Shown: positions 748 to 63,100, counted from the first letter of the stretch. The stretch is 64,000 bases of DNA from Bacteroidales bacterium (GCA_030681475.1 JAUXWT010000035.1:4428-68427); one strand, 5' to 3'. Program-made: numbers and translations. The notes: generated from the sequence alone by a model not told the origin.

Positions 748-750
748 AAC

Positions 751-778
751 GTGACGCGTGACAGGTGACACGTGACGG
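751..778 (+). repeat. Tandem 7-mer array GTGACNN x4
   Basis: gtgacgc gtgacag gtgacac gtgacgg, starting 4 nt after the stop at 745-747. Confidence 0.85.
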
Positions 779-796
779 GCTACCGTATCAACCATT

Positions 797-845
797 ACTT
801 AATACTTAAAACTTAACACTTAACACATAAAAATTAAAACTAAAA
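797..845 (+). repeat. Tandem 7-mer array ACTTAAN-like x7
   Basis: acttaat acttaaa acttaac acttaac acataaa aattaaa actaaaa, ending 3 nt before the ATG at 849. Confidence 0.8.
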
Positions 846-848
846 ACC

Positions 849-1823
849 ATGAAACATATACTTACGATCGTAATTTTTGCATTTGTAATGAATGCTGCCT
901 TTTCACAGTCAAATATCCCCAACGGAAATTTTGAAAACTGGTATAATGTTGTGATCAGCGCCACCCTAAACTATGATGATATCGGAACAGGTCCTGCCGA
1001 TAACTGGTTATCAACATTGAATTCCCTGGCAGCCGTTCCTCAAACCGCGGGAGGCCCTGGTCCTGTTACCGTTATTAAAACGACGGATAAATATTCCGGT
1101 ACTTTTGCTGCCAAAGCCGTTTCGGCAAATTTTCCCTTGGGTCCGGTAACGATATTCATTCCCGGGATGATCGGAACAGCCCAGTTGGACTTTGCAGGTG
1201 TTCGGGCCATTCTGGGTAAACCATGTGCTGGTTGCAAACCCATGCGTTTCAAAGGATATTATAAATTTGAACCGGTAAATGGCGACTCCTGTGCTGCAAT
1301 AATATTGCTTTCGAAATGGAACTCAACGGCTAAAAAGCGTGATACCATCGGATATGGAAAAATGGTGCAGCGCAACGCGGTGAATACCTATACCCAATTC
1401 GATATCCCGGTAAATTACACGGGCAGCGGTACAATTGATACCATGACATTGCTGGTTGTATCCAGCGCTGGATTCAACCTATTCAACTTTATGGGTGGCG
1501 TTGGTCAGCCTGGAAGCACAATGTATGTTGATGAACTTACCCTCGACTATCCTGCCGGGATCCAACAGGTTCTGATGCCAGAAGTCACCGTAAGTGCATA
1601 TCCGAATCCGGCGTCAGATATTCTGCACCTCAACCTGAGCAAAGAGGTGAAGAATGGCGCACTTGAGGTTTACAATGCTGAAGGAAAACAAGTAGGCTCC
1701 TATGAGCTTTCAAAGCGGGCCAATTCGGTTCCGGTGAACACCCTTATCAATGGCGCATATTACTTCCGTTTGGTTTCCGGTAAGAAATTGTTGAATACAG
1801 GCACTTTTGTGATTAAAAAGTAA
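849..1823 (+). CDS. Secreted protein with T9SS type-A C-terminal sorting domain (possibly PCMD-like N-terminal domain)
   Basis: N-terminal signal peptide. NGNFENW motif near the N-terminus. C-terminal YPNPASDILHLNL...GAYYFRLVSG...FVIKK matches the Por_Secre_tail pattern. Confidence 0.6.
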   Translation: MKHILTIVIFAFVMNAAFSQSNIPNGNFENWYNVVISATLNYDDIGTGPADNWLSTLNSLAAVPQTAGGPGPVTVIKTTDKYSGTFAAKAVSANFPLGPVTIFIPGMIGTAQLDFAGVRAILGKPCAGCKPMRFKGYYKFEPVNGDSCAAIILLSKWNSTAKKRDTIGYGKMVQRNAVNTYTQFDIPVNYTGSGTIDTMTLLVVSSAGFNLFNFMGGVGQPGSTMYVDELTLDYPAGIQQVLMPEVTVSAYPNPASDILHLNLSKEVKNGALEVYNAEGKQVGSYELSKRANSVPVNTLINGAYYFRLVSGKKLLNTGTFVIKK

Positions 1824-1847
1824 CCTAACGCCTAATATTATACCCTT

Positions 1848-12394: not shown

Positions 12395-13477
12395 TTGACC
12401 AAGAGACCAAACGTAATCGTGGGTTTGAGTGGAGGCGTTGATTCTTCGGTTGCCGCATACCTTTTAAAGGAGCAAGGCTATGAAGTGATTGGTGTCACCA
12501 TGGCGATCTGGGACGGACAATATAAATCAACGGGAAAACATGCCTGTTATGGCTCCGACGAGGAGGAGGAGATCCATGAAGCCCGCGAAGTGGCTAAAAA
12601 GCTGGATATTCCTTATCATGTGTTCAACTGCTCCGCTGAATACAAACAAGCCGTGCTTGATTATTTTAAGTCGGAATACCTGGCCGGACGTACCCCTAAC
12701 CCATGCATACAATGCAACCAGCTCATTAAATTCGGCATGTTGCCTACCATGGCCAGGAAAGGTGGTATCGATTTTGACTTTTTCGCGACAGGGCATTACG
12801 CCAGTGTTGAGTTTAATGAGAAATATCAACGGTATGTACTTAAAAAAGCGGCTGATCTGAAAAAGGATCAAACCTATTTCATTCACAGGTTGTCGCAGGA
12901 TCAGTTGTCGCAGGCCCTGCTCCCGATCGGACGGTTCAGAAAACCTGAGATCAAGGAACTCGCACGCAAAGTGGGGATCACCATCGAAGATCTTGAAGAG
13001 AGCCAGGATTTCTACAGCGGCGATTACAAAGATCTGCTTGAAGTTGAAGATCGCCCGGGAGATATTGTGAATTCTCAGGGAACCGTGCTGGGAAAACATA
13101 ATGGAATATGGAACTATACGATCGGCCAACGTAAAGGTTTGGGCATCGCTTGGTCGGAACCGCTCTACGTGATCGGTTTGAATAAAGAGGAAAATAAGGT
13201 CATCGTGGGTGTTCGCGAGGAAACATTCAATGCGACATTTATTGTTTCAGACCTGAACTGGGTTGCACTTCCGGGATTGACCAAAACCATGGAATGTACC
13301 GCAAAGATACGTTCATCGCAACAAGATCGTGAAGCAAGGATCGAACCCATGGAAAACGGCGATGTGAAAGTCACTTTTTTTCACCCTAGCGATTCGATCA
13401 CGCCGGGGCAATCCGCTGTTTTTTATGATGACGATTTGGTGCTTGGTGGGGGGATTATTAAAGGAGTGATTGAGTGA
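12395..13477 (+). CDS. mnmA: tRNA 2-thiouridine(34) synthase
   Basis: PP-loop VGLSGGVDSS, NPCIQCN, ATGHYA and DQTYFI motifs. The start codon is TTG. The last five codons and the stop lie in a GAGTGATT repeat. Confidence 0.9.
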   Translation: MTKRPNVIVGLSGGVDSSVAAYLLKEQGYEVIGVTMAIWDGQYKSTGKHACYGSDEEEEIHEAREVAKKLDIPYHVFNCSAEYKQAVLDYFKSEYLAGRTPNPCIQCNQLIKFGMLPTMARKGGIDFDFFATGHYASVEFNEKYQRYVLKKAADLKKDQTYFIHRLSQDQLSQALLPIGRFRKPEIKELARKVGITIEDLEESQDFYSGDYKDLLEVEDRPGDIVNSQGTVLGKHNGIWNYTIGQRKGLGIAWSEPLYVIGLNKEENKVIVGVREETFNATFIVSDLNWVALPGLTKTMECTAKIRSSQQDREARIEPMENGDVKVTFFHPSDSITPGQSAVFYDDDLVLGGGIIKGVIE

Positions 13478-13479
13478 TT
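13464..13479 (+). repeat. GAGTGATT x2 (same unit as the 63.0-kb palindrome)
   Basis: Direct read. Overlaps the mnmA stop codon (TGA 13475-13477). Confidence 0.8.
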
Positions 13480-13505
13480 GGAATTAATATTGTTTATGCA
13501 TGACC

Positions 13506-13550
13506 TTGCATTGTTTGCATTGCGTGCATTGCTTACATTGTTTACATTCA
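13506..13550. repeat. Tandem 9-mer array, 5 units (TTGCATTGT-like)
   Basis: ttgcattgt ttgcattgc gtgcattgc ttacattgt ttacattca. Confidence 0.85.
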
Positions 13551-13563
13551 ATAAAATAACCTT

Positions 13564-15347: not shown

Positions 15348-15389
15348 CATGACGCGTAACGTGTGACATGTGCTGCGGGATGCGTGAAA
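15348..15389 (+). repeat. Tandem 7-mer array, 6 degenerate units (CATGACG/CGTAACG/TGTGACA...)
   Basis: Begins 3 nt after the stop at 15343-15345. Related to the array at 751-778. Confidence 0.75.
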
Positions 15390-45050: not shown

Positions 45051-45056
45051 ATTTTT

Positions 45057-45241: not shown

Positions 45242-45243
45242 GT

Positions 45244-45528: not shown

Positions 45529-45537
45529 TTTTTTTAG

Positions 45538-45570: not shown

Positions 45571-45600
45571 GAATTTAAGACTTCTCAATGTCGCGACCTC

Positions 45601-46194: not shown

Positions 46195-46201
46195 ATTTCA
46201 A

Positions 46202-46238
46202 GTTACGATTTACGATTTATGATTTTTCACCATTTCAC
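46202..46238. repeat. Composite array: GTTACGA/TTTACGA/TTTATGA 7-mers followed by TTCACC-ATTTCAC
   Basis: Fills the 43-nt spacer between subunit I and subunit III. Confidence 0.75.
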
Positions 46239-47848
46239 TATTTATAATCGTATGGCCCTTCATTTACTCCCAATTCCGGCATGATATCAAAATTCTCAAC
46301 CGGCGGAGGGGAAGGGATGTTCCATTCAAAGGTTCTTCCTCCCCATGGATTATCCGGCGCTTTGGCGCCTTTTTTACTGAAAAGGGTGATCAACATAATT
46401 ACAAATCCGATGACCAGCAAAATCCCGCCCCAGAATGAAAGTTGATGTCCGAATGTAAACTGGGGTAAATAGTCGAAGTATCTTCGAGGCATGCCCATCA
46501 TCCCGATGATAAATTGAGGGAAATAGAGCAGATTGAATCCGGTAAAAAGGAATACGAATGACCAGTTGGCCATTTTTATATTATACATGCGACCATACAT
46601 CTTTGGATACCAGTAATATATGGCGGCAAAAAAGGCAAATCCCACCCCGCCAAAAACGATGTAATGGAAATGGGCAACCACATAGGCGGTATCATGAACA
46701 TGAATGTTCGTAGCCAGTGCGCCAAGTGATAGGCCAGTCATACCTCCGATCATAAAGAGAAAGATAAATCCGAGGGCAAATAAAAACGGTGGCTTAACTG
46801 AAATGGAGCCTTTGTACATGGTGGTCACCCAGTTAAAAACTTTAATGGCGCTGGGAACAGCAACCAGGAAAGTAAGCAAGGAGAAGACCCAGCGGGCGGT
46901 TGTACTCATCCCGGAGGTATACATATGATGTGCCCAAACGAAATACCCAACCGAGGCAATAGCCAGGCTGGAGATTGCAATGGCTTTATATCCGAAAATC
47001 CTCCGTAGCGCGAACGTGGGAATGATCTCGGTGATGACCCCCATTGCCGGCAAGATCATGATATAGACAGCAGGATGGGAATATATCCAGAACAAATGTT
47101 GATATAATATCGGGTCACCACCCAGGGATGGATCGAAGAAGCCGATCCGCAGCCACCTCTCAGCAATGATCATTAGCAAGGTTATCCCGACGATCGGAGT
47201 GGCAAGAACCTGTATCCAGGCAGTAGCGTAAAGTGACCATGGAAAGAGGGGCATTTTGAAAAATGTCATGCCTGGCGCGCGCATGCGGTGCATGGTCACG
47301 ATAAAATTCAATCCTGTGAGGATGGAAGAGAATCCGAGCACAAATGCCCCAAACACTGCCGCAACCACGTTGGTTTGAGTTTGGATGCTGTAGGGTGCAT
47401 AAAACGTCCATCCCGTATCTGGTGGACCGTTGCCCATGAATTGTGAAGCAAGTGCGATCGCAGCGCCAAGCACGTAGAGATAGAACGAAAACAGGTTTAA
47501 CCTAGGGAAGGCAACATCCTTGGCGCCAATCATCAATGGCAAGGAGAAATTTCCAAAAACTGCGGCCAATCCGGGAATTACAACGGTAAAAATCATGATG
47601 ATGCCATGAATCGTGAATATTCCGTTGTAGGCCTGCGGACCGTAGATCTGCTGACCCGGCCAGTAGAGTTCCATCCGCATCAATACGCCTAAGATAACTC
47701 CAACGCTGAAGAACACCATGATGGCATACATATACATCAACCCGATCCGCTTGTGGTCAGTTGATGTAAGCCAGGCCATCAGGCCTTTATATTTGCCCGT
47801 ATCAACGAGGTAACTTGGCTCAGGATGGTGAGTCTTTTCTTCTGTCAT
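46238..47848 (-). CDS. ctaD: Cytochrome c oxidase subunit I
   Basis: 536 aa. WFFGHP-like LFWIYSHPAVYIMILP, and HHMYT and HFHYIVFGG haem/CuB ligand regions. Confidence 0.95.
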   Translation of the reverse strand: MTEEKTHHPEPSYLVDTGKYKGLMAWLTSTDHKRIGLMYMYAIMVFFSVGVILGVLMRMELYWPGQQIYGPQAYNGIFTIHGIIMIFTVVIPGLAAVFGNFSLPLMIGAKDVAFPRLNLFSFYLYVLGAAIALASQFMGNGPPDTGWTFYAPYSIQTQTNVVAAVFGAFVLGFSSILTGLNFIVTMHRMRAPGMTFFKMPLFPWSLYATAWIQVLATPIVGITLLMIIAERWLRIGFFDPSLGGDPILYQHLFWIYSHPAVYIMILPAMGVITEIIPTFALRRIFGYKAIAISSLAIASVGYFVWAHHMYTSGMSTTARWVFSLLTFLVAVPSAIKVFNWVTTMYKGSISVKPPFLFALGFIFLFMIGGMTGLSLGALATNIHVHDTAYVVAHFHYIVFGGVGFAFFAAIYYWYPKMYGRMYNIKMANWSFVFLFTGFNLLYFPQFIIGMMGMPRRYFDYLPQFTFGHQLSFWGGILLVIGFVIMLITLFSKKGAKAPDNPWGGRTFEWNIPSPPPVENFDIMPELGVNEGPYDYK

Positions 47849-47849
47849 A

Positions 47850-48647
47850 TTATGTGTTTTGTGTTTTTGATTTCTTCCGGGACGACCGGATTATGAGAAT
47901 GATAAATAATGTAAGTGCAAAGAAAATGATCACGGTGGCAGCAATTTTAGTAACCTGCAAGGTGTATTTCCGACCTTCGGGGTCATAACTGAAACAATAT
48001 TCAAGTACACGGTTAATCGTTGGTCTCGACAAACCTTTCTGAGCTTCGACAATGGCCATTTTTACATCAAACACAAGAAAGGAGGTGCCATACAGGTAGC
48101 GGGTTACTTTTCCCTGAGGACTCAGAATCAAAATGCATGAAGGATGCATAAAATCATTTCCTGCACGGGTGAATTTGTAGCCGATAGTATGAATCAACGA
48201 ATAGATGTTGGCGCTGTCGCCAGTCAGGTAATCCCAATGGACAGCGCGCGGCCTGCTGTGTTCCCTTAAAAAGTTTTTTTTCTTCTCGACCGAAACGGCC
48301 GGAGTGTCGTCTTCATTGAAGCTGAAAGTGATCACCTGGTAATCTTTGCCCAGTTCCATCCCCATTTTTTCAATGACATCAGAAACTCCTGACAGCAATT
48401 GCGGACAAATTCCCGGACAGTCATAATAGACCGGGATAAGAATTGTTGGCTTAGTAATCAGTGATTTAAGTTGAACAGATTGCCCCAATTCATTTGTAAA
48501 GATCAGATTCGCAGGAATAATGGTGTCGAGCTGCTCCACAATTCCAACTTCCTCTTCAGCCCCGTCAAGTTGAGCGAACACCGGAAAGCTAAGAATGACC
48601 GCTATAATTATAAAGAATATGCCAGAATAAATAATTTTACTTTTCAT
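47850..48647 (-). CDS. SCO-family copper chaperone
   Basis: Signal/anchor sequence, CPGICP (CxxxCP) motif, C-terminal TM helix. Confidence 0.75.
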   Translation of the reverse strand: MKSKIIYSGIFFIIIAVILSFPVFAQLDGAEEEVGIVEQLDTIIPANLIFTNELGQSVQLKSLITKPTILIPVYYDCPGICPQLLSGVSDVIEKMGMELGKDYQVITFSFNEDDTPAVSVEKKKNFLREHSRPRAVHWDYLTGDSANIYSLIHTIGYKFTRAGNDFMHPSCILILSPQGKVTRYLYGTSFLVFDVKMAIVEAQKGLSRPTINRVLEYCFSYDPEGRKYTLQVTKIAATVIIFFALTLFIILIIRSSRKKSKTQNT

Positions 48648-48700
48648 AATAACGGTAATTAATATAGCATTTTCAAATCTTCAATTCTCCAAATCCCAAA

Positions 48701-49075
48701 TTAACCATGATCGTCTTCTTTATAAATGCCCGCGATCATCAACGATCCTCCGAGTAGTGATGTATCTTTCAGTAATTCAATCAGCGCCATATTTGCGGAG
48801 GCAGGCTCGAACAGTCCGGGGATATGGATGGTGCAGATAAAAATTAACAGCAACAAGGCAAGGAGAAGACAGGCAATTTGAATGAATTTTTTTGATACGA
48901 TGGCTATGCATGCAGCAATCAGAGCCAACCCGGTGAGGATTACCGTAAAGCCTCCTCCCGGGATAAATGAACTCACCATCCCAACATAATAATTATACAT
49001 CAGGAAGTGATTCAGCCCCATGATGCCGAATGGTATGGCAAACAGAATTCTCCCAATGGTTGACAATTGTTTCAT
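48701..49075 (-). CDS. DoxX-family membrane protein
   Basis: 124 aa, 4 TM helices. GRILFAIPFGIMGLNHF N-terminus typical of DoxX. Confidence 0.6.
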   Translation of the reverse strand: MKQLSTIGRILFAIPFGIMGLNHFLMYNYYVGMVSSFIPGGGFTVILTGLALIAACIAIVSKKFIQIACLLLALLLLIFICTIHIPGLFEPASANMALIELLKDTSLLGGSLMIAGIYKEDDHG

Positions 49076-49112
49076 TCTTTCCTTTTTTAGTATCTGGTAA
49101 TTCCTGATTATT

Positions 49113-50018
49113 TTAAAGGTTAATTTTTTTCACTTTCCTTATTTTCAGGATCGAATATACAATATAGAATATAAATCCCCACACAATGATCACTGATAGT
49201 GTATAGGTGAGAATTATCCAAACCGGGGCCTTTCCACGGGTTGCCCACCATGCTCGGCCTTCGGTCAGACTGGGCATGTCGGTTGGTTTGCCAATGGCAA
49301 GGGTTGCAATTGCACCGGTGGTTTTCATGATGTTTTTTGGATCATTGACCATGGCTGAAACCTCAACATAACCTTCCTTATTACCAGGCAGATCGGCAGG
49401 AAATTCAAAGATGGCAAGGCCCTTGTCGTTCGTAGTTTTAAGTTCTCCTACCTGCAACTTGCCAAAAAATCGCTTTACAAACAGTGCAACTTCGACTCCG
49501 GCTGCATGGACTGATTGGCCATCTTTCAATTCTTCGTTGGCGGTAACAACAACTTTTTTCCCCAGATCGTCGTATTTCATGTCCAGGGTAACAATTCTGC
49601 CGGCAAATGAGGCTTTGGTTGCCGGGTTTGGTTGAATGTATTTAGGGTTGTAAGAACGCATATAGGCGATGACCCACCAACGTTCATCTTCCGACAGGAT
49701 ATTGCGAAATTCGGGCATTGGCGCTTTACCAACCGTGATACGGTAAAACAGTTCACCATCGGGCTGTTTCTGAGCCAATTCTTTTGACAAATCGCCGGGT
49801 GGCGGTGTGAGTTTCGCCCAATTGTCCTTCCCCATGAGGCCGTGGCACGACTGGCAGTTTTTCAGGTAGATCTGTTCGCCCTGTTTTTGCATTTCAGGAG
49901 TGAAAAGAAATGGGGCTACCACCGTTTTTTGATCATCGGGAACCACCCAGGTTTGAGCGGAAACAGTCATTCCGATGGAACAGACGTAGAGGATAATGAA
50001 TAGGTTTATAAAACGCAT
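49113..50018 (-). CDS. Membrane-anchored monoheme c-type cytochrome with extra beta-rich domain
   Basis: Signal peptide. A single CQSCH haem site with distal APMPEF. About 150-aa additional domain. C-terminal TM helix VWIILTYTLSVIIVWGFIFYIVY. Confidence 0.7.
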   Translation of the reverse strand: MRFINLFIILYVCSIGMTVSAQTWVVPDDQKTVVAPFLFTPEMQKQGEQIYLKNCQSCHGLMGKDNWAKLTPPPGDLSKELAQKQPDGELFYRITVGKAPMPEFRNILSEDERWWVIAYMRSYNPKYIQPNPATKASFAGRIVTLDMKYDDLGKKVVVTANEELKDGQSVHAAGVEVALFVKRFFGKLQVGELKTTNDKGLAIFEFPADLPGNKEGYVEVSAMVNDPKNIMKTTGAIATLAIGKPTDMPSLTEGRAWWATRGKAPVWIILTYTLSVIIVWGFIFYIVYSILKIRKVKKINL

Positions 50019-50039
50019 GGTTCCTTGATTATTTCTTGG

Positions 50040-51371
50040 TTAATCAAATTTAAAATGTTCAATGCCTTTTTCCCTGGCAGTTTCATGCAGCGGGATGACC
50101 GGAAAAAATTTTGAAATAAGGGTGATGATGATGAGCACAAGTATGAACGGGGCGATCGTAATCATTGTCTCGATCAACGTCGGTGAATAATGAACAAAGT
50201 TTTGCGGTACATGCTGAATGGGAAGAAAGGGATGTTCCTGGGTGGGGATCACAATGATATATCTTTTAAACCATGCCGCAATAAGCACTGCCACGGATAT
50301 AAGCATGATTGGCAGTGGTTTACGGAAACGATGGAAGAGCATGAAGAGAATGGGAAGGATCAGTCCGCCAATCTGGACTACCCAAAAAAGCAGTGTGTCT
50401 TTACCGGCAAAAAGTTCATGCAGGTGAACAGCATCGGCACGTTTCAGTTTATATCCCGGTACCAGGAACTCGTTGATGTTGAAATAGAGATAAACCAGGG
50501 AAACTGTGGCAAGCACTTTTCCCATGTTGTTGAAGTGCAAATCGGTGAGATAATTTTGCAGTTTATAGTTTTTTCGGAAGAAGAACATCGCGATGATGAC
50601 GGCGGCAGAACCTGCAACAAAAGCGCCCGAAACAAAATAGGGCCCAAAAACCGTACTGTCCCAACCTGCCCGTGAGGTAACTGCAAACAACCATGAAGTG
50701 ACCGTATGGATCGAAAGCGCAGCCGGAATCAGCAAGATAAGCAGTGTACGAATAGCCCGGTTAATGATCTTATTCTGTTGCGGGTTATCAGTGAAATTCA
50801 ATGATAGAACTTTGTAAATTGGCTTAAGCCAGGATGGCAACCTGTCAACTTTCCGGTGAATGATGGCCATATCTGCAATAAGTGGCAGGAACAATAACAG
50901 CAAGCTCAGTACCAAATATGTTGTAATTACTGTGACATCCCAAAGGATAGGTGATTGTGGCCGTCCGTAAAGAAAAACATAGACCAGGCGTTCAGGGCGA
51001 CCCATGTCGGAAACAATGACCAGTCCGGCAACAGCGGCAAAGGCAACGGCAATCGTCTCTGCAATCCGGGTAATCGGGGTTAGCCATTTCATACCGATCA
51101 GACCAAGCACTGCGCTGATAAGCATTCCGATGAGGCTGGCTGCCACGAAAAAGACAAAGTTCGCCAGGTACATTCCCCAGGTAACATAGTCGCGGATACC
51201 GGCCACCCCCAATCCGGTCCTAAGTTGGATCGAATAGGCATAAAGACAGACCATCAGCGACACGGTCAGAAAACCCATCCAGATCAGGAATCCTTTATTG
51301 ATCCTGATATGATGAGTAAGATCGCTGGTGATTTTGTCGAAGGTAAATTGATTGTCATCCATGGTCATCAT
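50040..51371 (-). CDS. NrfD/PsrC/ActC-like polytopic quinone-interacting membrane subunit
   Basis: 443 aa, about 10 TM helices. GRPERL and WDV...TTY motifs of the NrfD family. ATGA overlap with the upstream Fe-S gene. Confidence 0.75.
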   Translation of the reverse strand: MMTMDDNQFTFDKITSDLTHHIRINKGFLIWMGFLTVSLMVCLYAYSIQLRTGLGVAGIRDYVTWGMYLANFVFFVAASLIGMLISAVLGLIGMKWLTPITRIAETIAVAFAAVAGLVIVSDMGRPERLVYVFLYGRPQSPILWDVTVITTYLVLSLLLLFLPLIADMAIIHRKVDRLPSWLKPIYKVLSLNFTDNPQQNKIINRAIRTLLILLIPAALSIHTVTSWLFAVTSRAGWDSTVFGPYFVSGAFVAGSAAVIIAMFFFRKNYKLQNYLTDLHFNNMGKVLATVSLVYLYFNINEFLVPGYKLKRADAVHLHELFAGKDTLLFWVVQIGGLILPILFMLFHRFRKPLPIMLISVAVLIAAWFKRYIIVIPTQEHPFLPIQHVPQNFVHYSPTLIETMITIAPFILVLIIITLISKFFPVIPLHETAREKGIEHFKFD

Positions 51372-52339
51372 GCTTTTTCAGGAGTTGCATCGCCGGCCTC
51401 TTCAAACGGGAACAGACGGTTTTTAGGTGGCAGGTAATACACGCGCGGCTTGGTTCCCAGCTCAGGCATCAACTGATAGCCTCCATTGTCGCGAAGAAGT
51501 TTGCTTAACCTGACTGTTTCCTTGGTGGTGCCGTTGGTCACAGCATCTTCGTTTTCATCGCCGAAGTAATAAACACCGTTGGGGCAAGCTTCAACGCAAT
51601 AAGGCAATTTACCCTCTCTGAGCCGGTCGGCGCTGAAAAGGCATTTGGAGATGGTGCCCAGTTTTTGGGGAACATTCAGTTCCACATTATAATCCTTTCC
51701 CTGGTGACTGGCAGCATCCTTAGGTTCTATCCAGTTGAATATACGGGCTGAGTAAGGACATGCGGCCATGCAAAAGCGGCAACCGATACAACGGTCATTA
51801 TCAATAAGTACGATGCCATCGGGTCGTTTGTAGGTAGCGTCAACCGGACATACCGAAACGCAAGGCGGATTATCGCAATGCTGGCAGTGCTTCGGCATGT
51901 TGTAAGGCGCTGTACCCGGAGCATCCTTCATTTGAAGTACATTCACGTGGTATTGCTCCGGTCGCAACTGGTGTGCATCCTGACATGCAGAGATGCATTT
52001 ACGTGCGTTGCGGCATTTCGAAAGATCAATTACCAACACCCAGCGCCGTCCGGGAATACCCTCCCGTCCCTGGGATATCAGGAGCTCTTCACCTGTTTTT
52101 TCCAGCGCTTTGATCTCAAGTGAATCCACCTGAACCAACTTTCCATCTTGCGTGAGTAACACTTTCTGATCGCCGGAGACCTCTTTCTTGGCCTCAAAAA
52201 TGTGACCGGAATATAGCGCGGCTGCACCAGTGGCAACGCCAACACCAGCCAACCCAAGGTTTTTCAGAAAGTTTCGGCGGGTGGAATTTTTTTGATCTTC
52301 TGATTCATCAGGGGAATGGGGAGTATTGTTATCGTCCAT
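51368..52339 (-). CDS. Tat-exported 4Fe-4S ferredoxin-type subunit (NrfC/PsrB/ActB2-like)
   Basis: Twin-arginine signal TRRNFLKNLGLAG. Cys clusters CQHCDNPPCVSVCP, CIGCRFCMAACP and C...CVEACP. Confidence 0.8.
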   Translation of the reverse strand: MDDNNTPHSPDESEDQKNSTRRNFLKNLGLAGVGVATGAAALYSGHIFEAKKEVSGDQKVLLTQDGKLVQVDSLEIKALEKTGEELLISQGREGIPGRRWVLVIDLSKCRNARKCISACQDAHQLRPEQYHVNVLQMKDAPGTAPYNMPKHCQHCDNPPCVSVCPVDATYKRPDGIVLIDNDRCIGCRFCMAACPYSARIFNWIEPKDAASHQGKDYNVELNVPQKLGTISKCLFSADRLREGKLPYCVEACPNGVYYFGDENEDAVTNGTTKETVRLSKLLRDNGGYQLMPELGTKPRVYYLPPKNRLFPFEEAGDATPEKA

Positions 52340-52367
52340 GATTATTTCTTGTCGGAATTAATATGCA

Positions 52368-52375
52368 CAAATGTA
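52368..52375 (-). promoter_or_regulatory. Candidate -7 box (TACATTTG on minus strand) for the respiratory cluster
   Basis: 29 nt upstream of the ATG at 52339, in a 50-nt spacer. Confidence 0.35.
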
Positions 52376-52389
52376 AATAAATAATCGAA

Positions 52390-54912
52390 TTAAAAGGGGA
52401 ATAGCATTGAAATTTTTCCGGCAAAATTATTACCGACATTTTCGAATGAATAGGGGCCCCACCGGTAAAATGCGCCAATTCCAATGGTATAAATCCGAAG
52501 GTTGATGAGGTTGTTTATCAGCAACCCGGATTCATAATAGCCCAGTTTCATTTCCCTGGGGTTGATGGAGTTATAACTATACCTGGGTTTGTGATCGAGC
52601 CAGCCGAAGCCGACATTCTGGCTGAGGGCAAATTCAGGATGAAACCATTTCTTCCCCTTGAAAAGCAGGTAGCCAAAGTCGTGATAAATATAGATGGATG
52701 CATATTTATTTGAAAGAAATTCATTGCTTCGCATGGTGGCAAAACTGTTGGGTGCGTACAAAGATATCAACCGGTAACTAGCCGGTGCATAGTAAAGGTT
52801 GCATGCCGGAACAGGCTGATCAATAAATCCTCCGTTGATCTGTAGGGTCAGTTTTCCAAGATATTTGATATTAAATGTTTTACGTATTTTTAAATCGAAC
52901 CGGTCATAGTCATATTCACCCCGCAACAGGTTTTTTACTCCTCTTGTGTATTGAATCCATATCACCGGATATTTTGTGCCCAGGGAAATTTTGTTGTTAA
53001 CCGTCTGAATGAATTTTTCTCCATAGGCCCATTTGAACCCGGCCGTAATGTTGGTGAACCGGAATTGGTCATGGAACAATATGGTATTTCCATCTGCTGA
53101 TACCAGATCAATGGTGGTCGTTTTCTTAAAATCATTGGATATCCCTATATTGAATAACATATATTTTAAAGCCCTGAATCCCATGGAAAAGTCAAACTGT
53201 TGTGTCCGGTCGAGTTTCTTCAGCATCAGTTGCCTGAAGTTACCAGCGAGGATTGATTCATAGTCTGCGGGAAAACTCACGCCTCCGGACTCAACAAGGT
53301 CGTAAAAGCCGGAGGCGGTCATGGTCACATCGTGACGCCGGTTTACCAGAAACCTTACATCACCCCCGTATTTTGAAGTGGAAATCCCAAATGCATATTG
53401 ATAAAATCCTCCGATTTTAAACCAATCCGACAGGTGATCATTGGTATGTAGACCTGCACCCACTACAAGTCCCTCGTAAGTGTTGTAGTTAAGAAACCGG
53501 TTAATATCTATGTCGATGGGGCCCCATGGAATGCGTCCGGTAAGCAGGGTTTGGAGTGTTTTGGCCATTTTATCGAAGTTGTTGGCCTCTCCGACACTAT
53601 CGAGTACCCTGTAGGTCTGACGGTCTTTCCGGGTTAAACTGTCAACGCGGTATTGGTTCCAGAACGGTTCACTCCGCGAGGTGGCATCCTTATCGACCTC
53701 AACATCAAGATGATTGAATTCACGTCGCACAAGTTCGGGGTTCAGGACAATGTCGCGAATATAGCTCCGGCCACTGCCTACCGCTTTGTATTTTCCGACA
53801 CGCATATTGTTGAAAGCCACGTCGGTATTGAGCTGAACCGGAAACCACTGCTCTCCGTCTATAAGCTCGTAAAGCTGGTTGATCCTGATCATGATCCCAC
53901 CCGTGTTCGGATAGGGTTCGGCGGTGACATTCTGAATACCCCAATTGTGGGTGTTGATGGAAATAACTCCTTTCATGCCATCGAAATTTGTCCCTTTCCT
54001 GGGTCTGAAAGACAGAATAAAAACGGTATCCTTACCTTTATACGTGGTATCTTCGATTTTGAAAAAATACTTATTGAGACTCCCGCTCCCTATCGGATTG
54101 ATATAATCCTTCATCATGATCGAGATGATGGGTTTGTAAAACGAAAATGACTGGATCTGCGTGGCAAGGAATACAAGGATGGGGTCTTTAAAACCCGACA
54201 TCTTAGTTGCGATCACTTTGTTGTAGTTCTTGTCGGGAGCCATGAATTTTCGCCTGGTCACATTTTCCATGAGGAACAGGTACTGGTTGCTGATCAACTT
54301 TTCGATTAATCGTGCTGTTGAGTCCTTCATGGTAGAATCCGTTGGCACCGAGTCGGCTTTTATCTCAAAGTTTAACCCGATGCCACTGGTACCTTGAACC
54401 ATCGAGGTGTCAACCAGAGCTGAAAAATCATTGCGGATGGTGGTATCCATATCCACGGTAAAAACGGTTTTATCATAGGCCGTATAAGAAAAAGAACTTA
54501 CTTTTTCCGGATCATTGATGTTACGGTTATCAATAACATTGCGGATGATGCGGTGGGCAGGGTTGATACCCGGAAGGATCTCTACCTCCTGCAGATCGAT
54601 CTCCTTCTGTATCATTTTGATAATAAGATCCCTGGACTGGTCTGTTATCTCGACAGTCATCGGTTCATACCCAACGTAAGTCAACCTGATGGTTTGAACC
54701 GGTTTTGTCGAATGGAGCTTGAATTTACCGTCGATGTCGGTTGTTCCCCCGGTATTGCTGTTATTTATAACAATGTTTACGAATGCCAGGGATCCCCTTG
54801 TTTTAGAATCAACCACCCTTCCTGAAACTGAAAATGAACCCTGGGCGAAGCAATTTGCGGTGATCAAAGGAAAAATCAACAGGAACAAAAGGAGGCGGAG
54901 GTACATGAACAT
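52390..54912 (-). CDS. Carboxypeptidase-regulatory-like domain plus DUF5686-like outer-membrane protein
   Basis: Signal peptide. N-terminal SGRVVDSKTRGSLAFVNIVI...TDIDGKF (CarbopepD_reg_2-like). About 800-aa beta-rich remainder ending in F. Confidence 0.6.
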   Translation of the reverse strand: MFMYLRLLLFLLIFPLITANCFAQGSFSVSGRVVDSKTRGSLAFVNIVINNSNTGGTTDIDGKFKLHSTKPVQTIRLTYVGYEPMTVEITDQSRDLIIKMIQKEIDLQEVEILPGINPAHRIIRNVIDNRNINDPEKVSSFSYTAYDKTVFTVDMDTTIRNDFSALVDTSMVQGTSGIGLNFEIKADSVPTDSTMKDSTARLIEKLISNQYLFLMENVTRRKFMAPDKNYNKVIATKMSGFKDPILVFLATQIQSFSFYKPIISIMMKDYINPIGSGSLNKYFFKIEDTTYKGKDTVFILSFRPRKGTNFDGMKGVISINTHNWGIQNVTAEPYPNTGGIMIRINQLYELIDGEQWFPVQLNTDVAFNNMRVGKYKAVGSGRSYIRDIVLNPELVRREFNHLDVEVDKDATSRSEPFWNQYRVDSLTRKDRQTYRVLDSVGEANNFDKMAKTLQTLLTGRIPWGPIDIDINRFLNYNTYEGLVVGAGLHTNDHLSDWFKIGGFYQYAFGISTSKYGGDVRFLVNRRHDVTMTASGFYDLVESGGVSFPADYESILAGNFRQLMLKKLDRTQQFDFSMGFRALKYMLFNIGISNDFKKTTTIDLVSADGNTILFHDQFRFTNITAGFKWAYGEKFIQTVNNKISLGTKYPVIWIQYTRGVKNLLRGEYDYDRFDLKIRKTFNIKYLGKLTLQINGGFIDQPVPACNLYYAPASYRLISLYAPNSFATMRSNEFLSNKYASIYIYHDFGYLLFKGKKWFHPEFALSQNVGFGWLDHKPRYSYNSINPREMKLGYYESGLLINNLINLRIYTIGIGAFYRWGPYSFENVGNNFAGKISMLFPF

Positions 54913-54923
54913 TGATTTTTTTT

Positions 54924-54931
54924 CAAAGGTA
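54924..54931 (-). promoter_or_regulatory. Candidate -7 box (TACCTTTG on minus strand)
   Basis: 12 nt upstream of the ATG at 54912. This implies a very short leader. Confidence 0.3.
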
Positions 54932-55013
54932 AGAATTTAAAATAATCGTAACTTTCCAAAAAATTAGGATATCTGCAAAGAGGTAATAACACAAGGAAAA
55001 AGTGACAAAAGAG

Positions 55014-56177
55014 ATGAATTTTCCATTGATCGCCAAAACAATTTCCGGTCTTGAGGATGTATTGATGCAGGAATTAGGGACACTTGGAGCGACCGGTATG
55101 ATGAAACTGAACCGTGCAGTTTCCTTTACGGGCGATACGGAAACAATGTACAAAGTCAATTATGCCTGCCGGACTGTACTGAGGATACTAAAACCATTGT
55201 TCCACTTTGAGATCCTTGAACAAAAGGATCTTTACGAAAAAATTTATGAATTCCCCTGGGAAGATTTAGTGGACGCGGAACATTCCATTGCCATTGATGC
55301 GGTAATTTCTTACACGGTTTTCACAAATTCTCAATTTGTCGCACAACGGTCTAAAGATGCCATTGTGGACCGGTTGCGGGATAAAACCGGCAAGCGCCCC
55401 TCTGTGGATCTGGAAAATCCTGATTTGAAGGTAAATGTACACCTGTTCAAGGATTCCTGCACGGTTGCGCTCGATTCATCCGGGCAATCACTTCATCGTC
55501 GCGGGTACCGGCAAAGCACTGGTCCGGCGCCTATCAACGAAGTACTTGCCGCCGGCCTTGTGAAACTTTCGGAATGGGATGGCGTCAAACCATTGTTCGA
55601 CCCGATGTGCGGATCAGCGACCTTGCTGATCGAGGCTGCCATGCTTGCAAAAAATATGCCCTCCGGTTATTTCCGGGAGGAATGGGGGTTTATGAAATGG
55701 CGGGATTTTGATGCGGAGCTGTGGGAAAAGGTCAAAGTTGATTCAAACGAACTCATTACTGATTTAAAGGTAAAACTGCATGGCGCCGACCGGGCGCCGC
55801 GCGCCATTGAATCTGCCCGTGAAAACCTCCGGTTTACCAACCTTTATGAGGAGATCACGCTGGAAGTTAAAACATTTGAAGAATCAGAACCTCCGTTTGA
55901 CAAGGGATTCATTATCTCAAACCCGCCTTACGATGAGCGGCTTCAGATAGAAGATTCGCTTGTGTTTTATAAAATGATCGGCGATACCCTGAAACGGAAA
56001 TATGCCGGATTTACGGCCTGGCTGATCTCATCGGACCTGGAAACCATAAAATTTATCGGGTTGCGGCCCTCCCGAAGGATCGCGGTATTCAACGGCCCGC
56101 TGGAATGCAGGTTTTTGAAGTTTGATCTTTTTGCCGGGAAGAAGGGGTATGGGGAAACTGATATTAAGGCGGAGTAG
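55014..56177 (+). CDS. THUMP-domain class I SAM-dependent RNA methyltransferase (RlmL/K-like)
   Basis: DPMCGSATLLIEAA and NPPYDERL motifs. I prefer the ATG at 55014 (MNFPLIAKT...) over the GTG at 55002. Confidence 0.75.
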   Translation: MNFPLIAKTISGLEDVLMQELGTLGATGMMKLNRAVSFTGDTETMYKVNYACRTVLRILKPLFHFEILEQKDLYEKIYEFPWEDLVDAEHSIAIDAVISYTVFTNSQFVAQRSKDAIVDRLRDKTGKRPSVDLENPDLKVNVHLFKDSCTVALDSSGQSLHRRGYRQSTGPAPINEVLAAGLVKLSEWDGVKPLFDPMCGSATLLIEAAMLAKNMPSGYFREEWGFMKWRDFDAELWEKVKVDSNELITDLKVKLHGADRAPRAIESARENLRFTNLYEEITLEVKTFEESEPPFDKGFIISNPPYDERLQIEDSLVFYKMIGDTLKRKYAGFTAWLISSDLETIKFIGLRPSRRIAVFNGPLECRFLKFDLFAGKKGYGETDIKAE

Positions 56178-56220
56178 GTTTATTTGCAAGTTCTACTTTT
56201 GTAAGATCATTGTAAAACAC

Positions 56221-56294
56221 AAAATGCAAAATGCAAATGGTAAGATGCAATATATGGAAACCTGTCCGCTTGTCCGCCTGTCCGCCTGTCCGGC
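56221..56294. repeat. Composite array A: six 7-mers (AAAATGC family) followed by four 8-mers (TGTCCGCY)
   Basis: Direct read. 56231-56262 is identical to 56572-56603. Confidence 0.9.
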
Positions 56295-56553
56295 ACAATG
56301 ATTCGCAGCACACAGATAGTATTATCCAAAACTGGATATGCAATAGGAATACCATTGAATTATTAGGCTTTTGGAAAAGCATCTACAACAATAATTTTAT
56401 GAGGGTGTCTCAAAAGATGAAAAGTATAACCACAAAGGACTCAAAGTTTTTACACGAAGGACACAAAGATCAGATATTCAGTAGTGTACACTTTGCAAAC
56501 TCTGCGAGACACTTAGCGAACTTTGCGGTTAAAGGACTTTTTTAATCTCATAG

Positions 56554-56643
56554 TAAAATGCAAAATGCAATATGCAAATGGTAAGATGCAATATATGGAA
56601 ACCCGTCCCCCCGTCCTCTCGTCCCCCCGTCCCCCCGTCCACT
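56554..56643. repeat. Composite array B: seven 7-mers (AAAATGC family) followed by five 8-mers (CGTCCCCC family)
   Basis: Direct read. Shares a 32-nt identical core with array A and has one extra 7-mer (AATATGC). Confidence 0.9.
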
Positions 56644-60169: not shown

Positions 60170-60461
60170 TATCAATGACCAAGAAAAGGTCTTCTTTCTC
60201 CTTTTTCATAAGGTACCGTTCGCGGGCAAACTTCTCCAGATGAGCGCTGTCGGTCATTAACTGGCGGGTAAGGATAGAGTCCTTCCTGATCTCCTGGAGA
60301 TAGAATCGTTTTTCAGTGTTCAATTGATCTAATTTGTTTTGTAAATCGTTACGGATCAACATGTTGTTGCTGTCAAAAAACACCATCCATATCACAAATG
60401 CCACCGTTGTCAGGAAGAACTTGTTGATGAGTATCCGAAAGATCAGCCTTAGAACAGCCAT
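60147..60461 (-). CDS. Septum formation initiator (FtsB/DivIC-like) protein
   Basis: 104 aa with a single N-terminal TM helix followed by a coiled-coil (LQNKLDQLNTEKRFYLQEI). Confidence 0.55.
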   Translation of the reverse strand: MAVLRLIFRILINKFFLTTVAFVIWMVFFDSNNMLIRNDLQNKLDQLNTEKRFYLQEIRKDSILTRQLMTDSAHLEKFARERYLMKKEKEDLFLVIDTTADQHQ

Positions 60462-60466
60462 TGATT

Positions 60467-62521
60467 TTACACCTGTAATTTTAAATAGTTGTATATCTCA
60501 ACCTGGGATTGTATATCCGGACCGTTGATTTTTTTATATGTGTTTTGTTCTCCGGGACCAATCACCCTGGCTTTGACATTATCTGCCATTTGAATTTCAA
60601 GTATTTTCATCAGTTGCTTCTGGATTTCCGGATCATTGATGGGTGTTGCGACCTCGATGCGGTTATCAAAATTACGTACCATCCAGTCGGCCGATGTGAT
60701 GTAAAATTTATTGTCACCACCATTGCAGAAAACAATGATCCGGGCATGTTCCAGGAACCGGTCAACAATACTGATTGCTTCAATGTTTTCACTCAGACCG
60801 GGGATTCCCGGAACGAGTGTACAGATCCCCCTGATAATGAGTTTGATTTTCACCCCGGCCTGACTGGCTTTATAAAGTTTTTTCACCATGGTTCCATCAA
60901 CGAGGCTGTTCAGTTTGATGATGGCCCATGCCTCCTTTCCTGCTTTTGCGTTGCGAATCTCACTGTTCAACATCCTGATATAGAAATTGCGCATGTGAAG
61001 GGGAGCCACGATCAGCGATTTAAACTTATAGGGACGGTAGCTCTCTTCGATGAGGTGAAATGAGTTTACCACATCGTTACAGATCTTTTGATCGGCTGTG
61101 AGTAAGCTGACATCGGAATAAACTTTGGCTGTATCCTCGTTGAAATTCCCGGTTCCGATAAACGCATAGAAGAAATCCCTGTTGTGCTCTTTTCTGCGTA
61201 TCAGGATCAGTTTGCCGTGAACCTTGAACCCGGGGATGCTGTATATGACCTTCACTCCCTCTTCACGCAGCTTTTCAGTCCAGTAAATGTTTGCCTCTTC
61301 ATCAAACCTTGCCTGTAGTTCCATGAAAACCGTCACATATTTGCCATTCCTGGCAGCGTTGATCAGCGCATTGATGACACTGGAGTTTTTTGCCGCCCTG
61401 TAAATGGTCATTTTTATTGACCTGACTTTCGGATCAATGGAGGCTTCGCGCATCAGGTCAACGATGTATTGAAACGATTGGTATGGATAATGAAGCAGGA
61501 TATCTTTCTGCCTTATTGACGAAAGGATGCTCCTGTTCACCGGCAAATCTTTGTGCATCAATGGTACAAATGGCGGGTACTCAAGTTCACGGTGGCCGAG
61601 GTTTGGAAATCCCATGAAATCCTTAAAATTATGATACCGCCCCCCACCTCTGATCGGATCGTCTTTGGTGATCTCCAGGCGTTTGGTGAGGCTCTTCAAT
61701 AAAATTTCAGGAATCGACTTGTCATAAACAAAGCGTACGGGTATCCCACGTTTCCTTTGTTTCAGGCTCTCGGTCATCACATCGAGGAAACTCTTGGAGA
61801 CATCTGTATCTATGTCAATTTCAGCATCACGGGTAATCTTTACCGTATAAGCGGAAAACGTGTCGTATCCGAAAATGGAGAATATTTCGGAAAGACAGTA
61901 CCTGATGATGTCGTCGAGCAGGATGATGTAACGTTTCTCCGCTTCGGTCGGCAAGATCAGGAAACGAGATATGGTCTTCGTAGGCAGTTCGATCAGCGCG
62001 TAGTTGTCCTTCAACGTTTTATCTTTACGCCCGATGGTGATGGCCAGATATATTGATTTGTCGCGGAGTGATGAGATGTCGCGTAAACTGCTGATCATAA
62101 TTGGGAATAAGACACCACGCACCTGCTCCCGGAAATATTTACGTACGAATTTTCCCTGAGATTCCGAAAGCTGGGTTTCATCGATAATGAATATATTATG
62201 AAGCCGGAGATCATTCACTATATTTTCATAGATCTTCACGAATTCACGTTCTTGTGCCTGTACCAGTATGCTGATATCTTTCAGCGCTTTTTTTGGCTTA
62301 ACCGGGGTATCGTAATGGACCCTTTCCACTTTAAGCATCCGGTTGAGTGTGGCTACCCGGACACGAAAAAATTCGTCACGGTTGTTTGAGAATATCCCCA
62401 GGAATTTCAACCGCTCCAACAGCGGATTGCGCTGATCGGCTGCTTCCTGCAATACCCGTCCGTTGAAATGGAGCCAGTTGGGATCGCGGTCGAGGATGGG
62501 GACAGTCTTTTTGGAACTCAT
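60467..62521 (-). CDS. ppk: Polyphosphate kinase 1
   Basis: NRDEFFRVR, the HGK (His phosphorylation site) region KVHGKLILI, and two PLD-like modules. The start at 62521 forms an ATGA overlap with the sixA-like stop. Confidence 0.9.
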   Translation of the reverse strand: MSSKKTVPILDRDPNWLHFNGRVLQEAADQRNPLLERLKFLGIFSNNRDEFFRVRVATLNRMLKVERVHYDTPVKPKKALKDISILVQAQEREFVKIYENIVNDLRLHNIFIIDETQLSESQGKFVRKYFREQVRGVLFPIMISSLRDISSLRDKSIYLAITIGRKDKTLKDNYALIELPTKTISRFLILPTEAEKRYIILLDDIIRYCLSEIFSIFGYDTFSAYTVKITRDAEIDIDTDVSKSFLDVMTESLKQRKRGIPVRFVYDKSIPEILLKSLTKRLEITKDDPIRGGGRYHNFKDFMGFPNLGHRELEYPPFVPLMHKDLPVNRSILSSIRQKDILLHYPYQSFQYIVDLMREASIDPKVRSIKMTIYRAAKNSSVINALINAARNGKYVTVFMELQARFDEEANIYWTEKLREEGVKVIYSIPGFKVHGKLILIRRKEHNRDFFYAFIGTGNFNEDTAKVYSDVSLLTADQKICNDVVNSFHLIEESYRPYKFKSLIVAPLHMRNFYIRMLNSEIRNAKAGKEAWAIIKLNSLVDGTMVKKLYKASQAGVKIKLIIRGICTLVPGIPGLSENIEAISIVDRFLEHARIIVFCNGGDNKFYITSADWMVRNFDNRIEVATPINDPEIQKQLMKILEIQMADNVKARVIGPGEQNTYKKINGPDIQSQVEIYNYLKLQV

Positions 62522-63018
62522 GGATTCTTCAACATTTTTGGAAATACGATAAACTCCTGGATTGCCTCTATTGACGGGATATCTTCCCACTTTTCGGTGT
62601 TGAATGACAGGCAAACAACACAGGAGGTGGGCATGTTATCAATCCCGGGATGTAAAAACAGGTTTGCCAGGTTTGTGATGGTCGGATTATGACCGAATAT
62701 CATCAGGGAGTTCAGATCGTTGGATGTACCGTAGATAATGTCGAGGATACGGTCATAATAACCATCGTATATTTTTCGATCAGTTTTGATCTTCTTTACC
62801 GGGTAGTTCAAACCTGTGGCGACTATTTTGGCAGTCTCGTATGCGCGAACTGCCGGACTCGAAATAATAAGGTCAATCGATGTATCCCTTTTCAGAAGAA
62901 AATCAACGATCAACTGAGTCTTTTTGATGCCTCTGGGGATCAGTGGCCGGTTGACATCCGAAACTCCCGGTTCCTCCCAGGAGGATTTTGCATGTCGCAT
63001 CAGGTATAATGTCTTCAT
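62518..63018 (-). CDS. Histidine phosphatase family protein (SixA-like)
   Basis: LYLMRHAKS catalytic RHG-type motif. 166 aa. Confidence 0.7.
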   Translation of the reverse strand: MKTLYLMRHAKSSWEEPGVSDVNRPLIPRGIKKTQLIVDFLLKRDTSIDLIISSPAVRAYETAKIVATGLNYPVKKIKTDRKIYDGYYDRILDIIYGTSNDLNSLMIFGHNPTITNLANLFLHPGIDNMPTSCVVCLSFNTEKWEDIPSIEAIQEFIVFPKMLKNP

Positions 63019-63032
63019 ATCAAAGAAATTGA

Positions 63033-63097
63033 GTGATTGAGTGATTGAGTGATTGAGTGAATATCTTCATCACTCAATCACTCAATCACTCAATCAC
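63033..63097 (-). terminator. Perfect 28-bp hairpin built from GAGTGATT 8-mers (possible glyA terminator/attenuator)
   Basis: 63033-63060 pairs perfectly with 63070-63097, with a 9-nt loop ATATCTTCA. Starts 3 nt after the glyA stop. A TTTCTTT run follows on the minus strand. Confidence 0.55.
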
Positions 63098-63100
63098 AAT

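Follow-up and report, generated by a model that had tools for sequence, protein, structure and literature searches.

Tandem arrays of 7- and 8-nt repeats occupy gene junctions of a Bacteroidales lineage in a two-part layout

The role of heptamer-type intergenic repeat arrays has been a standing question since short tandemly repeated repetitive (STRR) sequences were described in 1990. The units given by Mazel for a heterocystous cyanobacterium are reportedly CCCCAGT (STRR1), TTGGTCA (STRR2) and CAACAGT (STRR3). In enterobacteria, repetitive extragenic palindromes and bacterial interspersed mosaic elements (REP/BIME) are dispersed, imperfect and hairpin-forming palindromes that lie outside genes but inside operons, just past stop codons. 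Short tandem arrays also stand at gene boundaries in a 64,000-nt stretch of DNA from a Bacteroidales bacterium (GCA_030681475.1, JAUXWT010000035.1:4428-68427), the whole of which is called the window here. These arrays are long simple-sequence repeats (LSSRs) of the LSSR/STRR type, with units of 7 and 8 nt.

LSSRs were surveyed by Mrazek, Guo and Shah in 2007. As summarised in PMC4679880, they have units of 5-11 nt, of which heptamers are the commonest, are mostly intergenic, and often lie about 50 nt or less from the ends of open reading frames (ORFs); their phylogenetic distribution is patchy, and slippage is their proposed origin. In the traits covered by that summary, the window arrays are alike: they are head-to-tail, perfect or near-perfect, and far beyond chance length, heptamers feature prominently, units whose length is not a multiple of 3 occupy non-coding DNA, and their spread is patchy. 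Whole-unit changes in copy number also occur in close relatives (7-nt steps; 5.2 against 11.2 8-mers). The arrays differ in that 8-mers are here as common as 7-mers, with each period at its own position in the spacer, and lake Bacteroidales lie outside the survey as it is summarised there.

Rehm et al. (2015; PMC4692102) described cyanobacterial GGGGA(C/T)T and GGGAATC heptamers, which form G-quadruplexes (G4) and show a preference for four units. These G-rich heptamers are transcribed, vary among related strains, and favour gaps between same-strand ORFs, on the sense strand and within 50 nt past stop codons, while being scarce between divergent ORFs. The array at 45138-45237 resembles them in being G-rich in sense, close behind the cox4 stop codon and in a same-strand gap. 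A likeness to both these heptamers and the STRRs is that four exact copies of GTCCCCTT occur in many cyanobacterial genomes, Nostocales included. The G-tract unit of the window differs in being an octamer, in its 12.5 copies and in its Bacteroidales host. Arrays of TAACTGA lie a few nucleotides upstream of start codons in Beggiatoaceae, Cyanobacteria and five Bacteroidetes (MacGregor 2015; PMC4679880). They share with the window AT-rich heptamers in sense orientation a few nucleotides upstream of starts, placed before unrelated and often essential genes, in genomes sparing in Shine-Dalgarno use and with 7-nt indels between strains. The units here, however, are AAATCGT/AATTCGT or ACTTAAA, and a purine-rich post-stop array usually accompanies the pre-start array. 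The inverted array pair at 63028-63097 comes closest to REP/BIME, but the window arrays are tandem with 7-8-nt units, and only one array-bearing spacer is palindromic.

The window contains no tandem STRR1-3, GGGNATC or TAACTGA; the last occurs in 8 single copies. Its arrays are thus clearly members of the general LSSR kind that stand outside the named TAACTGA, STRR1-3 and GGGNATC families. A first reading of the window, made from the sequence only, knew of no described function for such boundary arrays in bacteria; any idea that nothing similar has been described is contradicted by the LSSRs, STRRs, TAACTGA arrays and G-rich heptamers (PMC4679880, PMC4692102). What appears to be new is the host lineage, the separation of post-stop 8-mers from pre-start 7-mers within single spacers, and the contrast between array-free and array-filled spacers in one operon.

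Tandem Repeats Finder (TRF; period 6-9, at least 2.5 copies) detects 18 arrays covering 643 nt of the window, whereas 30 dinucleotide-preserving shuffles contain 1.1 on average and 4 at most. Non-coding DNA holds 16 of the 18, and arrays account for about 15% of the 4,147 intergenic nt. Of the 32 window spacers that separate same-strand genes, 10 bear arrays; the 8 convergent or divergent spacers bear none. The enrichment at gene ends, for which the sequence-only reading had proposed a statistical test, is borne out by a mean minimum distance of 4.2 nt from array to nearest gene boundary (P = 5e-5 against random positions inside the same spacer). Nearly all of the sites it had listed in ten spacers are recovered by TRF, in agreement with inspection of the spacers; at 15348 and 48672-48706 the degenerate or weak periodicity is present but falls below the TRF threshold. 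TRF adds two GTCC-type octamer arrays (56261-56292 and 56602-56640) and the inverted partner at 63069-63097. As had also been stated, periods are 7 or 8 with a single 9-mer and are otherwise never multiples of 3. Arrays of period 7 or 8 are intergenic or overlap only a stop codon (at 13464-13480 also the last few codons), with the exception of a weak 2.9-copy heptamer at 49154-49173; the remaining arrays found by TRF inside ORFs have periods of 3, 6, 9, 10, 12 or 14. The exclusion of CRISPR (clustered regularly interspaced short palindromic repeats) likewise stands, the units being contiguous and 7-9 nt long, without 20-50-nt repeats and unique spacers.

The coxI>III, III>IV and IV>II spacers of the cytochrome oxidase operon served as a ruler for comparing Bacteroidales genomes, with crude ORF calls. 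A clade of 39 genomes (COX3 identity of at least 71%) was set against an outgroup of 22 (COX3 identity of 68% or less). Outgroup spacers have a median length of 12 nt (interquartile range (IQR) 10-14) and are almost array-free, whereas those of the clade have a median of 77 nt (IQR 50-119), reach about 250 nt and consist largely of arrays. Over the whole 8.6-kb loci, 157 arrays were counted in 319 kb of clade sequence and 20 in 296 kb of outgroup sequence, a roughly 7-fold difference in density. The arrays are therefore expansions within once tightly packed polycistronic junctions, and because they have expanded inside such junctions, they would be transcribed. The sequence-only reading had named confinement to the window and loss on reassembly as possible objections. 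The arrays are no assembly artefact, because related arrays are present at orthologous spacers in dozens of independent assemblies, including contigs of 3.5 Mb and 5.3 Mb.

Read in mRNA sense, the typical spacer runs from the stop codon into a purine- or G-rich array, mostly of 8-mers, then into an AT-rich 7-mer array, and over another 5-12 nt to the ATG; some spacers have an additional AT-rich or decayed array in the middle. Post-stop arrays of the clade (n = 77) start at a median of 2 nt past the stop codon, which often lies within the first unit; period 8 accounts for 43 of them, and G exceeds C in 61 against 12 with the reverse, similar to the sense-strand G-richness of the cyanobacterial heptamers. 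Pre-start arrays (n = 63) end at a median of 7 nt upstream of the ATG, are 75% AT, have period 7 in 50 cases and show C in excess of G in 42 against 9. The two classes differ strongly in period (Fisher P = 4e-8) and in skew (P = 2e-13).

Within the window, the layout is represented by a GTGACNN array followed by an ACTTAAA array (748-848), by a GAGTGATT array followed by the 9-mer (13464-13563), and by GAAATGGC in 8.6 copies followed by ATATTGA (19010-19104, minus strand). In the cox spacers, it takes the form of TGGTGAAA, or AAGGGGAC in 12.5 copies, followed by AAATCGT or AATTCGT. Pre-start heptamer arrays of the window end 1-13 nt upstream of the ATG. The yidD to S41 peptidase junction is a second operon with the two-part layout: the GAAATRGY post-stop family seen in the window also follows the yidD stop codon in three related metagenomic contigs, while the yidD spacers of distant relatives are short and array-free. 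In the window, the arrays at 23932-23964 and 56.2-56.6 kb break the rule by being C-rich in sense; the spacers around them are long and are probably boundaries between transcription units.

The two classes also differ in folding. The minimum free energy is 0 in 58% of the pre-start arrays, and 81% are less structured than their own shuffles, while RNA folding of the post-stop arrays of the clade is no different from that of shuffles. The cox4-coxII spacer is unstructured (z = +1.1), and ViennaRNA predicts no canonical structure for it.

Copy number is still changing in close relatives. Among contigs with identical COX3, spacers measure 73 or 80 nt, 76, 83 or 90 nt, and 128, 135, 142 or 149 nt, and the number of AAATCGT or AATTTGT units is the sole difference between the spacer sequences. 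In another lineage, an 8-mer array has 5.2 copies at locus L205 and 11.2 at L206. The final 5-12 nt upstream of the ATG remain unchanged across copy-number variants, and AAATCGT is kept in 9 of 9 cox spacers of three lineages in which the flanking unique sequence has diverged.

These features are probably best accounted for by an origin in slippage combined with a selective filter acting on the mRNA. Replication slippage would create the arrays and keep them homogeneous in spacers that were originally about 12 nt long, and relatives show that copy number still shifts by whole units between strains. As the spacers lie within polycistronic mRNAs, the survival of an array would be set by its effect on the message. 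Bacteroidota mostly start translation without Shine-Dalgarno pairing and rely on unstructured, A-rich leaders. Because of this, an array adjoining a start codon would be tolerated or favoured only if G-poor and structure-free. Inside an operon, a lengthy untranslated stretch rich in C and poor in G would be a good Rho-loading site and cause polarity, so only the G-rich orientation would survive past internal stop codons; the same filter would explain the C-rich exceptions at probable transcription-unit ends. Arrays that overlap a gene end (13464-13480 and 46225-46243) would need a stop triplet in every frame, because gain or loss of a unit could otherwise extend the protein. A side effect would be that spacer and leader lengths are readily mutable. 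Translational or transcriptional insulation, a role put forward in the sequence-only reading, is plausible.

Stop codons in all three frames, as claimed in that reading, are indeed found in units with a stop triplet, since 7 and 8 are coprime to 3. As a designed feature they were rejected: this arithmetic and purine richness explain them, and they matter only for arrays that overlap a gene end, such as those two. Stop triplets occur in 53 of 77 post-stop arrays on the sense strand and in 19 of 77 on the antisense strand. The motifs GGTGA, GAGG and AGGT are found in 36 of 77 in sense and in 1 in antisense; pairing with the anti-Shine-Dalgarno sequence is not claimed for them, as it is inseparable from purine richness.

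Several points weigh against the combination of slippage and mRNA-level filter. The steps of the filter are deduced from sequence. The layout statistics pool related genomes and orthologous spacers, with shared ancestry uncorrected, and the comparative gene calls are crude. Outside the cox spacers, the excess of G over C is weak (11 to 10). The stop-triplet and Shine-Dalgarno-like asymmetries are both expected from purine richness and provide no independent evidence. Retention of AAATCGT in all nine cox spacers suits sequence-specific selection as well as it suits a generic filter. At L247, L253, L219 and L215, the three cox spacers of one genome are often near-identical multi-array cassettes, non-repeat junctions included. 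Such cassettes, as at L247 and L253, point to gene conversion or block copying among spacers that lie 0.3-1 kb from one another; together with a duplicated 97-nt composite in the window, they require block duplication or gene conversion on top of slippage.

In the main rival account, which is unlikely, the arrays are instead sequence-specific cis-acting RNA elements. Here, an S1, cold-shock or RRM-type protein would bind tandem AAAUCGU-type heptamers upstream of starts, and perhaps purine-rich octamers past stops too, and would set the translation or stability of single cistrons. In several species-level lineages with diverged surroundings, the AAATCGT/AATTCGT unit has been kept in sequence, orientation and position before coxIII, cox4 and coxII. 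Pre-start units are concentrated, 36 of 63 belonging to one family (AAATCGT 21, AATTCGT 6, AATTTTT 5, AATTCAT 4). A sense bias is seen in other phyla as well: at least 120 places in many phyla carry (AAATCGT)x4, and in the same-strand spacers among the loci listed it is in sense in 50 and in antisense in 18. At these listed loci, sense copies lie at a median of 27.5 nt from starts and antisense copies at a median of 9.5 nt from stops. MacGregor put forward the same idea for TAACTGA (PMC4679880), and a Nostoc preprint reports altered reporter expression once heptamer repeats are deleted (10.1101/2022.06.06.494920). On the other hand, AAATCGT is tied to no gene class, standing before diverse genes and a tRNA gene, and it also occurs in antisense and in convergent spacers. 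Only about one third of the clade cox spacers hold at least two units within one mismatch of AAATCGT, and AATTTTT, AATTCAT, ACTTTAY and other AT-rich units substitute for it freely.

Slippage without any filter is less likely still. The arrays would then be neutral by-products of slippage-prone replication or repair specific to the clade, patterned by mutational strand bias and common descent. The fast turnover of post-stop units, the polymorphic copy number and the decayed arrays between perfect ones suit this idea, as does the patchiness across lineages and phyla, as in the survey of Mrazek and co-workers cited in PMC4679880. One strand bias, however, cannot give a G-rich post-stop and a G-poor pre-start sense strand in a single 100-nt spacer. 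The same rule is also seen in unrelated phyla (PMC4692102), and the divergent, promoter-containing spacers of the window are without arrays.

An action at the DNA level is very unlikely, either through sites for nucleoid proteins or transcription factors or through G4 or hairpin structures that modulate transcription or replication. The (GGGGACAA)12 array matches the canonical G4 motif and resembles the GGGGA(C/T)T repeats of Nostoc, which form G4 in vitro (PMC4692102). In addition, the inverted pair could form a hairpin or cruciform of 28 bp. Yet within the window, canonical G4 motifs ((G3+N1-7)x4) are confined to 45138-45237, its one array with G-tracts of at least 3. A period of 7-8 bp does not match the helical repeat, the divergent spacers in which promoters lie are array-free, and the orientation rule tracks the direction of transcription and thereby speaks for the RNA level. 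The suggestion in the sequence-only reading that nucleoid proteins bind the arrays is without support.

Classical contingency loci, with arrays as phase-variable on/off switches of adjacent genes, are highly improbable: unit numbers do vary among closely related strains, but the neighbours are housekeeping genes (cox operon, yidD, tRNA methyltransferase gene, dnaK, glyA, pfk), and the arrays lie outside coding frames, between the stop codon and a conserved -12..-1 leader (the last 5-12 nt upstream of the ATG staying constant despite copy-number change), rather than inside a surface or virulence gene or in its promoter.

Beyond the favoured combination of slippage and mRNA-level filter, it is conceivable, if rather doubtful, that the two-part layout constitutes a functional intercistronic code, in which gaps of about 12 nt have been replaced by modular, mutable spacers. 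The post-stop octamers would then be an anti-polarity, G4 or stability module, and pre-start (AAAUCGU)n would be a Shine-Dalgarno-independent ribosome landing pad or a site for an RNA-binding protein. If this were true, copy number would tune the subunit ratio from one mRNA, and the same logic would explain the STRR and LSSR arrays of cyanobacteria, Beggiatoaceae and other phyla. Across dozens of relatives, the three spacers of one conserved operon vary from array-free gaps of about 12 nt to stretches of 40-250 nt that are mostly arrays, which amounts to an unusually clean natural experiment. Clear rules of position, period and orientation, together with ongoing copy-number change, lead to testable predictions on Shine-Dalgarno-independent initiation, Rho polarity and subunit-ratio tuning.

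The arrays of the window are collected in Table 1.

Table 1. Repeat arrays in the window (positions counted from its first nucleotide; + and -, strand)
Position	Strand	Array	Placement and remarks	Detection
749-776	+	(ACGTGAC)x4, post-stop	1 nt past stop of TonB-dependent receptor gene (gene end 747); G-rich in sense; TGA in 3 frames	TRF
797-847	+	(ACTTAAA)x7.3, AT-rich, pre-start	1 nt short of ATG 849 (PCMD / type IX secretion system-tail protein)	TRF
13464-13480	+	(GAGTGATT)x2.1	Covers last four codons and TGA 13475-13477 of tRNA methyltransferase gene (PF03054)	TRF
13505-13548	+	(CTTGCATTG)x4.9, sole 9-mer	15 nt upstream of ATG 13564 (M28 peptidase)	TRF
15348-15375	+	Degenerate GTGAC-type 7-nt periodicity	2 nt past stop at 15345	By eye; below TRF threshold
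19023-19038	-	(TATTGAA)x2.3 in mRNA sense, AT-rich, pre-start	Upstream of S41 peptidase ATG (19009)	TRF
19036-19104	-	(GAAATGGC)x8.6 in mRNA sense, purine-rich, post-stop	Directly after yidD stop	TRF
23932-23964	+	(TTTCACCA)x4.1	2 nt past stop at 23929, 114 nt upstream of dnaK; C-rich in sense; exception to G-rich post-stop rule, probably at transcription-unit end	TRF
45057-45086	-	(TCGTAAT/TCATAAT)x4.3 in sense, AAATCGT/AATTCGT family	6 nt upstream of coxII ATG (45050)	TRF
45087-45137	-	Degenerate TGGYGGNT-like 8-nt periodicity	Between two perfect arrays; may be an older, decayed array	Read from sequence
45138-45237	-	(AAGGGGAC)x12.5 in sense	6 nt past cox4 stop (45244)	TRF
45539-45570	-	(AATCGTA)x4.4 in sense	10 nt upstream of cox4 ATG (45528)	TRF
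46203-46225	-	(AAATCGT)x3.3 in sense	8 nt upstream of coxIII ATG (46194)	TRF
46225-46243	-	(TGGTGAAA)x2.4 in sense	Overlaps coxI stop codon (46238-46240)	TRF
48672-48706	-	Weak GATTTGR-like (sense) 7-nt periodicity	Spacer between 124-aa gene and SCO1 gene	By eye; missed by TRF
56195-56291	+	Composite copy 1, 97 nt: unique, (AAAATGC)x2.6, unique, (CCTGTCCG)x4	TRF sub-arrays 56220-56237 and 56261-56292	TRF
56536-56640	+	Composite copy 2: (AAAATGC)x3.4 + (CCCGTCCC)x4.9	27 nt upstream of phosphofructokinase ATG (56668); TRF sub-arrays 56555-56578 and 56602-56640	TRF
63028-63097	-	Inverted array pair, (GTGATTGA)x3.6 + (TCACTCAA)x4 in sense	Between glyA (serine hydroxymethyltransferase) stop 63101 and histidine phosphatase ATG 63018; members 63028-63060 and 63069-63097	TRF

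Annotation covered the genes next to arrays, which are housekeeping genes: those for a TonB-dependent receptor, a tRNA methyltransferase (predicted from its Pfam domains to be mnmA), the M28 peptidase, YidD (19105-19326, minus strand, PF01809) and the S41 peptidase, as well as dnaK, the coxI-III-IV-II operon, rlmL, pfk and glyA. The two composite copies in the 490-nt rlmL-pfk spacer, 341 nt apart, are 84% identical over 97 nt, and the region at 56195-56640 resembles an inserted segment or a block duplication. Between the copies are 245 nt with a further two short repeats, one of 22-nt period (AAAGTATAACCACAAAGGACTC-like) and one of 21-nt period (ACACTTAGCGAACTTTGCG-like). The inverted pair in the spacer 63019-63100 forms a perfect 28-bp hairpin (-50.1 kcal/mol, z = -8.7); L205 carries an analogous inverted pair, and L214 has a unit similar to the one at 48672-48706. 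Structured RNAs and tRNAs have no match in the window (Rfam at gathering threshold; ARAGORN).

Unit families recur as the sequence-only reading had claimed, each of five being present at two or three independent window loci: GTGACNN at two, and GAGTGATT, ATTTCRCC, the GTCC type and the AAATCGT type at three each. They are also found elsewhere in relatives, GTGACGC at L201 and ACTTAAC, GAAATGG, GCGGACAG and GGGGACAA in the cox spacers of other genomes. The vocabulary is clade-wide, yet common to other phyla too. Its description as small fits the pre-start units, which are few and centred on the AAATCGT family, but not the post-stop units, which are very diverse and nearly all distinct across the clade. 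At least 119 places carry exact (GTCCCCTT)x4, mainly in cyanobacteria such as Nostoc, Rivularia, Scytonema and Phormidium, with Blastocatellia and Chloroflexia among the other hosts. A vocabulary shared with cyanobacteria was nevertheless rejected: the loci selected by GTCCCCTT contain 263 different units, which overlap little with those of the window, only AATTACG being notably in common.

In the window and at L201 and L205, AAATCGT arrays are restricted to the three cox spacers. A cox-specific cis-element was rejected all the same, as (AAATCGT)x4 stands on other contigs of clade genomes and in many phyla before unrelated genes. At L309, (AAATCGT)x6 (2544-2585) lies directly upstream of an apparent tRNA gene (GGAGAGGTGTCCGAGTGGTCGAAGGAGC...), so the arrays are not confined to protein-coding leaders.

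The dnaK loci of unrelated gut and rumen Bacteroidales are also array-rich, with 17 arrays at L021 (a Tidjanibacter sp. metagenome-assembled genome (MAG)), 11 at L055 and 11 at L039, each per about 22 kb. These three use different units, and array-rich lineages seem to have arisen several times within the Bacteroidales. The listed hosts of exact arrays include Nostocales, Oscillatoriales, Chloroflexia, Anaerolineae, Saprospiraceae, Lewinellaceae and a Desulfococcaceae isolate, which we take to be filamentous or gliding; Akkermansia and Acidobacteria are among the hosts as well. Any connection of array richness with cell organisation or ploidy is no more than an impression.

The DnaK of the host has at most 80% identity to any species representative. 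Its COX3 shares 91-93% identity (95% over a partial match) with that of MAGs from stratified freshwater lakes, some of which are labelled Prolixibacteraceae or Draconibacterium. The Logan contig L200 (SRR13727517) is 100% identical to window positions 45202-55528 and terminates within the GTCCCCTT array. Arrays of this type break short-read assemblies, and counts of them in MAGs may be too low. As well as fragmenting short-read contigs, arrays generate spurious ORFs. Two ORFs that appear to contain arrays, 45001-45276+ (91 aa) and 56231-56545+ (104 aa), have no Pfam match; only the absence of stop codons from the GTCCCCTT and GTCCGCC arrays on that strand keeps them open, and they are probably spurious and liable to mis-annotation as hypothetical proteins.

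At 32636-40807 (+), the window also contains an ORF of 2,723 aa in which internal repeats of about 780-800 nt are numerous. A homologue at the edge of L201, with a product of 2,729 aa, is annotated with many PKD domains. Because a PorP/SprF gene adjoins it, the ORF probably specifies a large protein of the cell surface, with export through the type IX secretion system.

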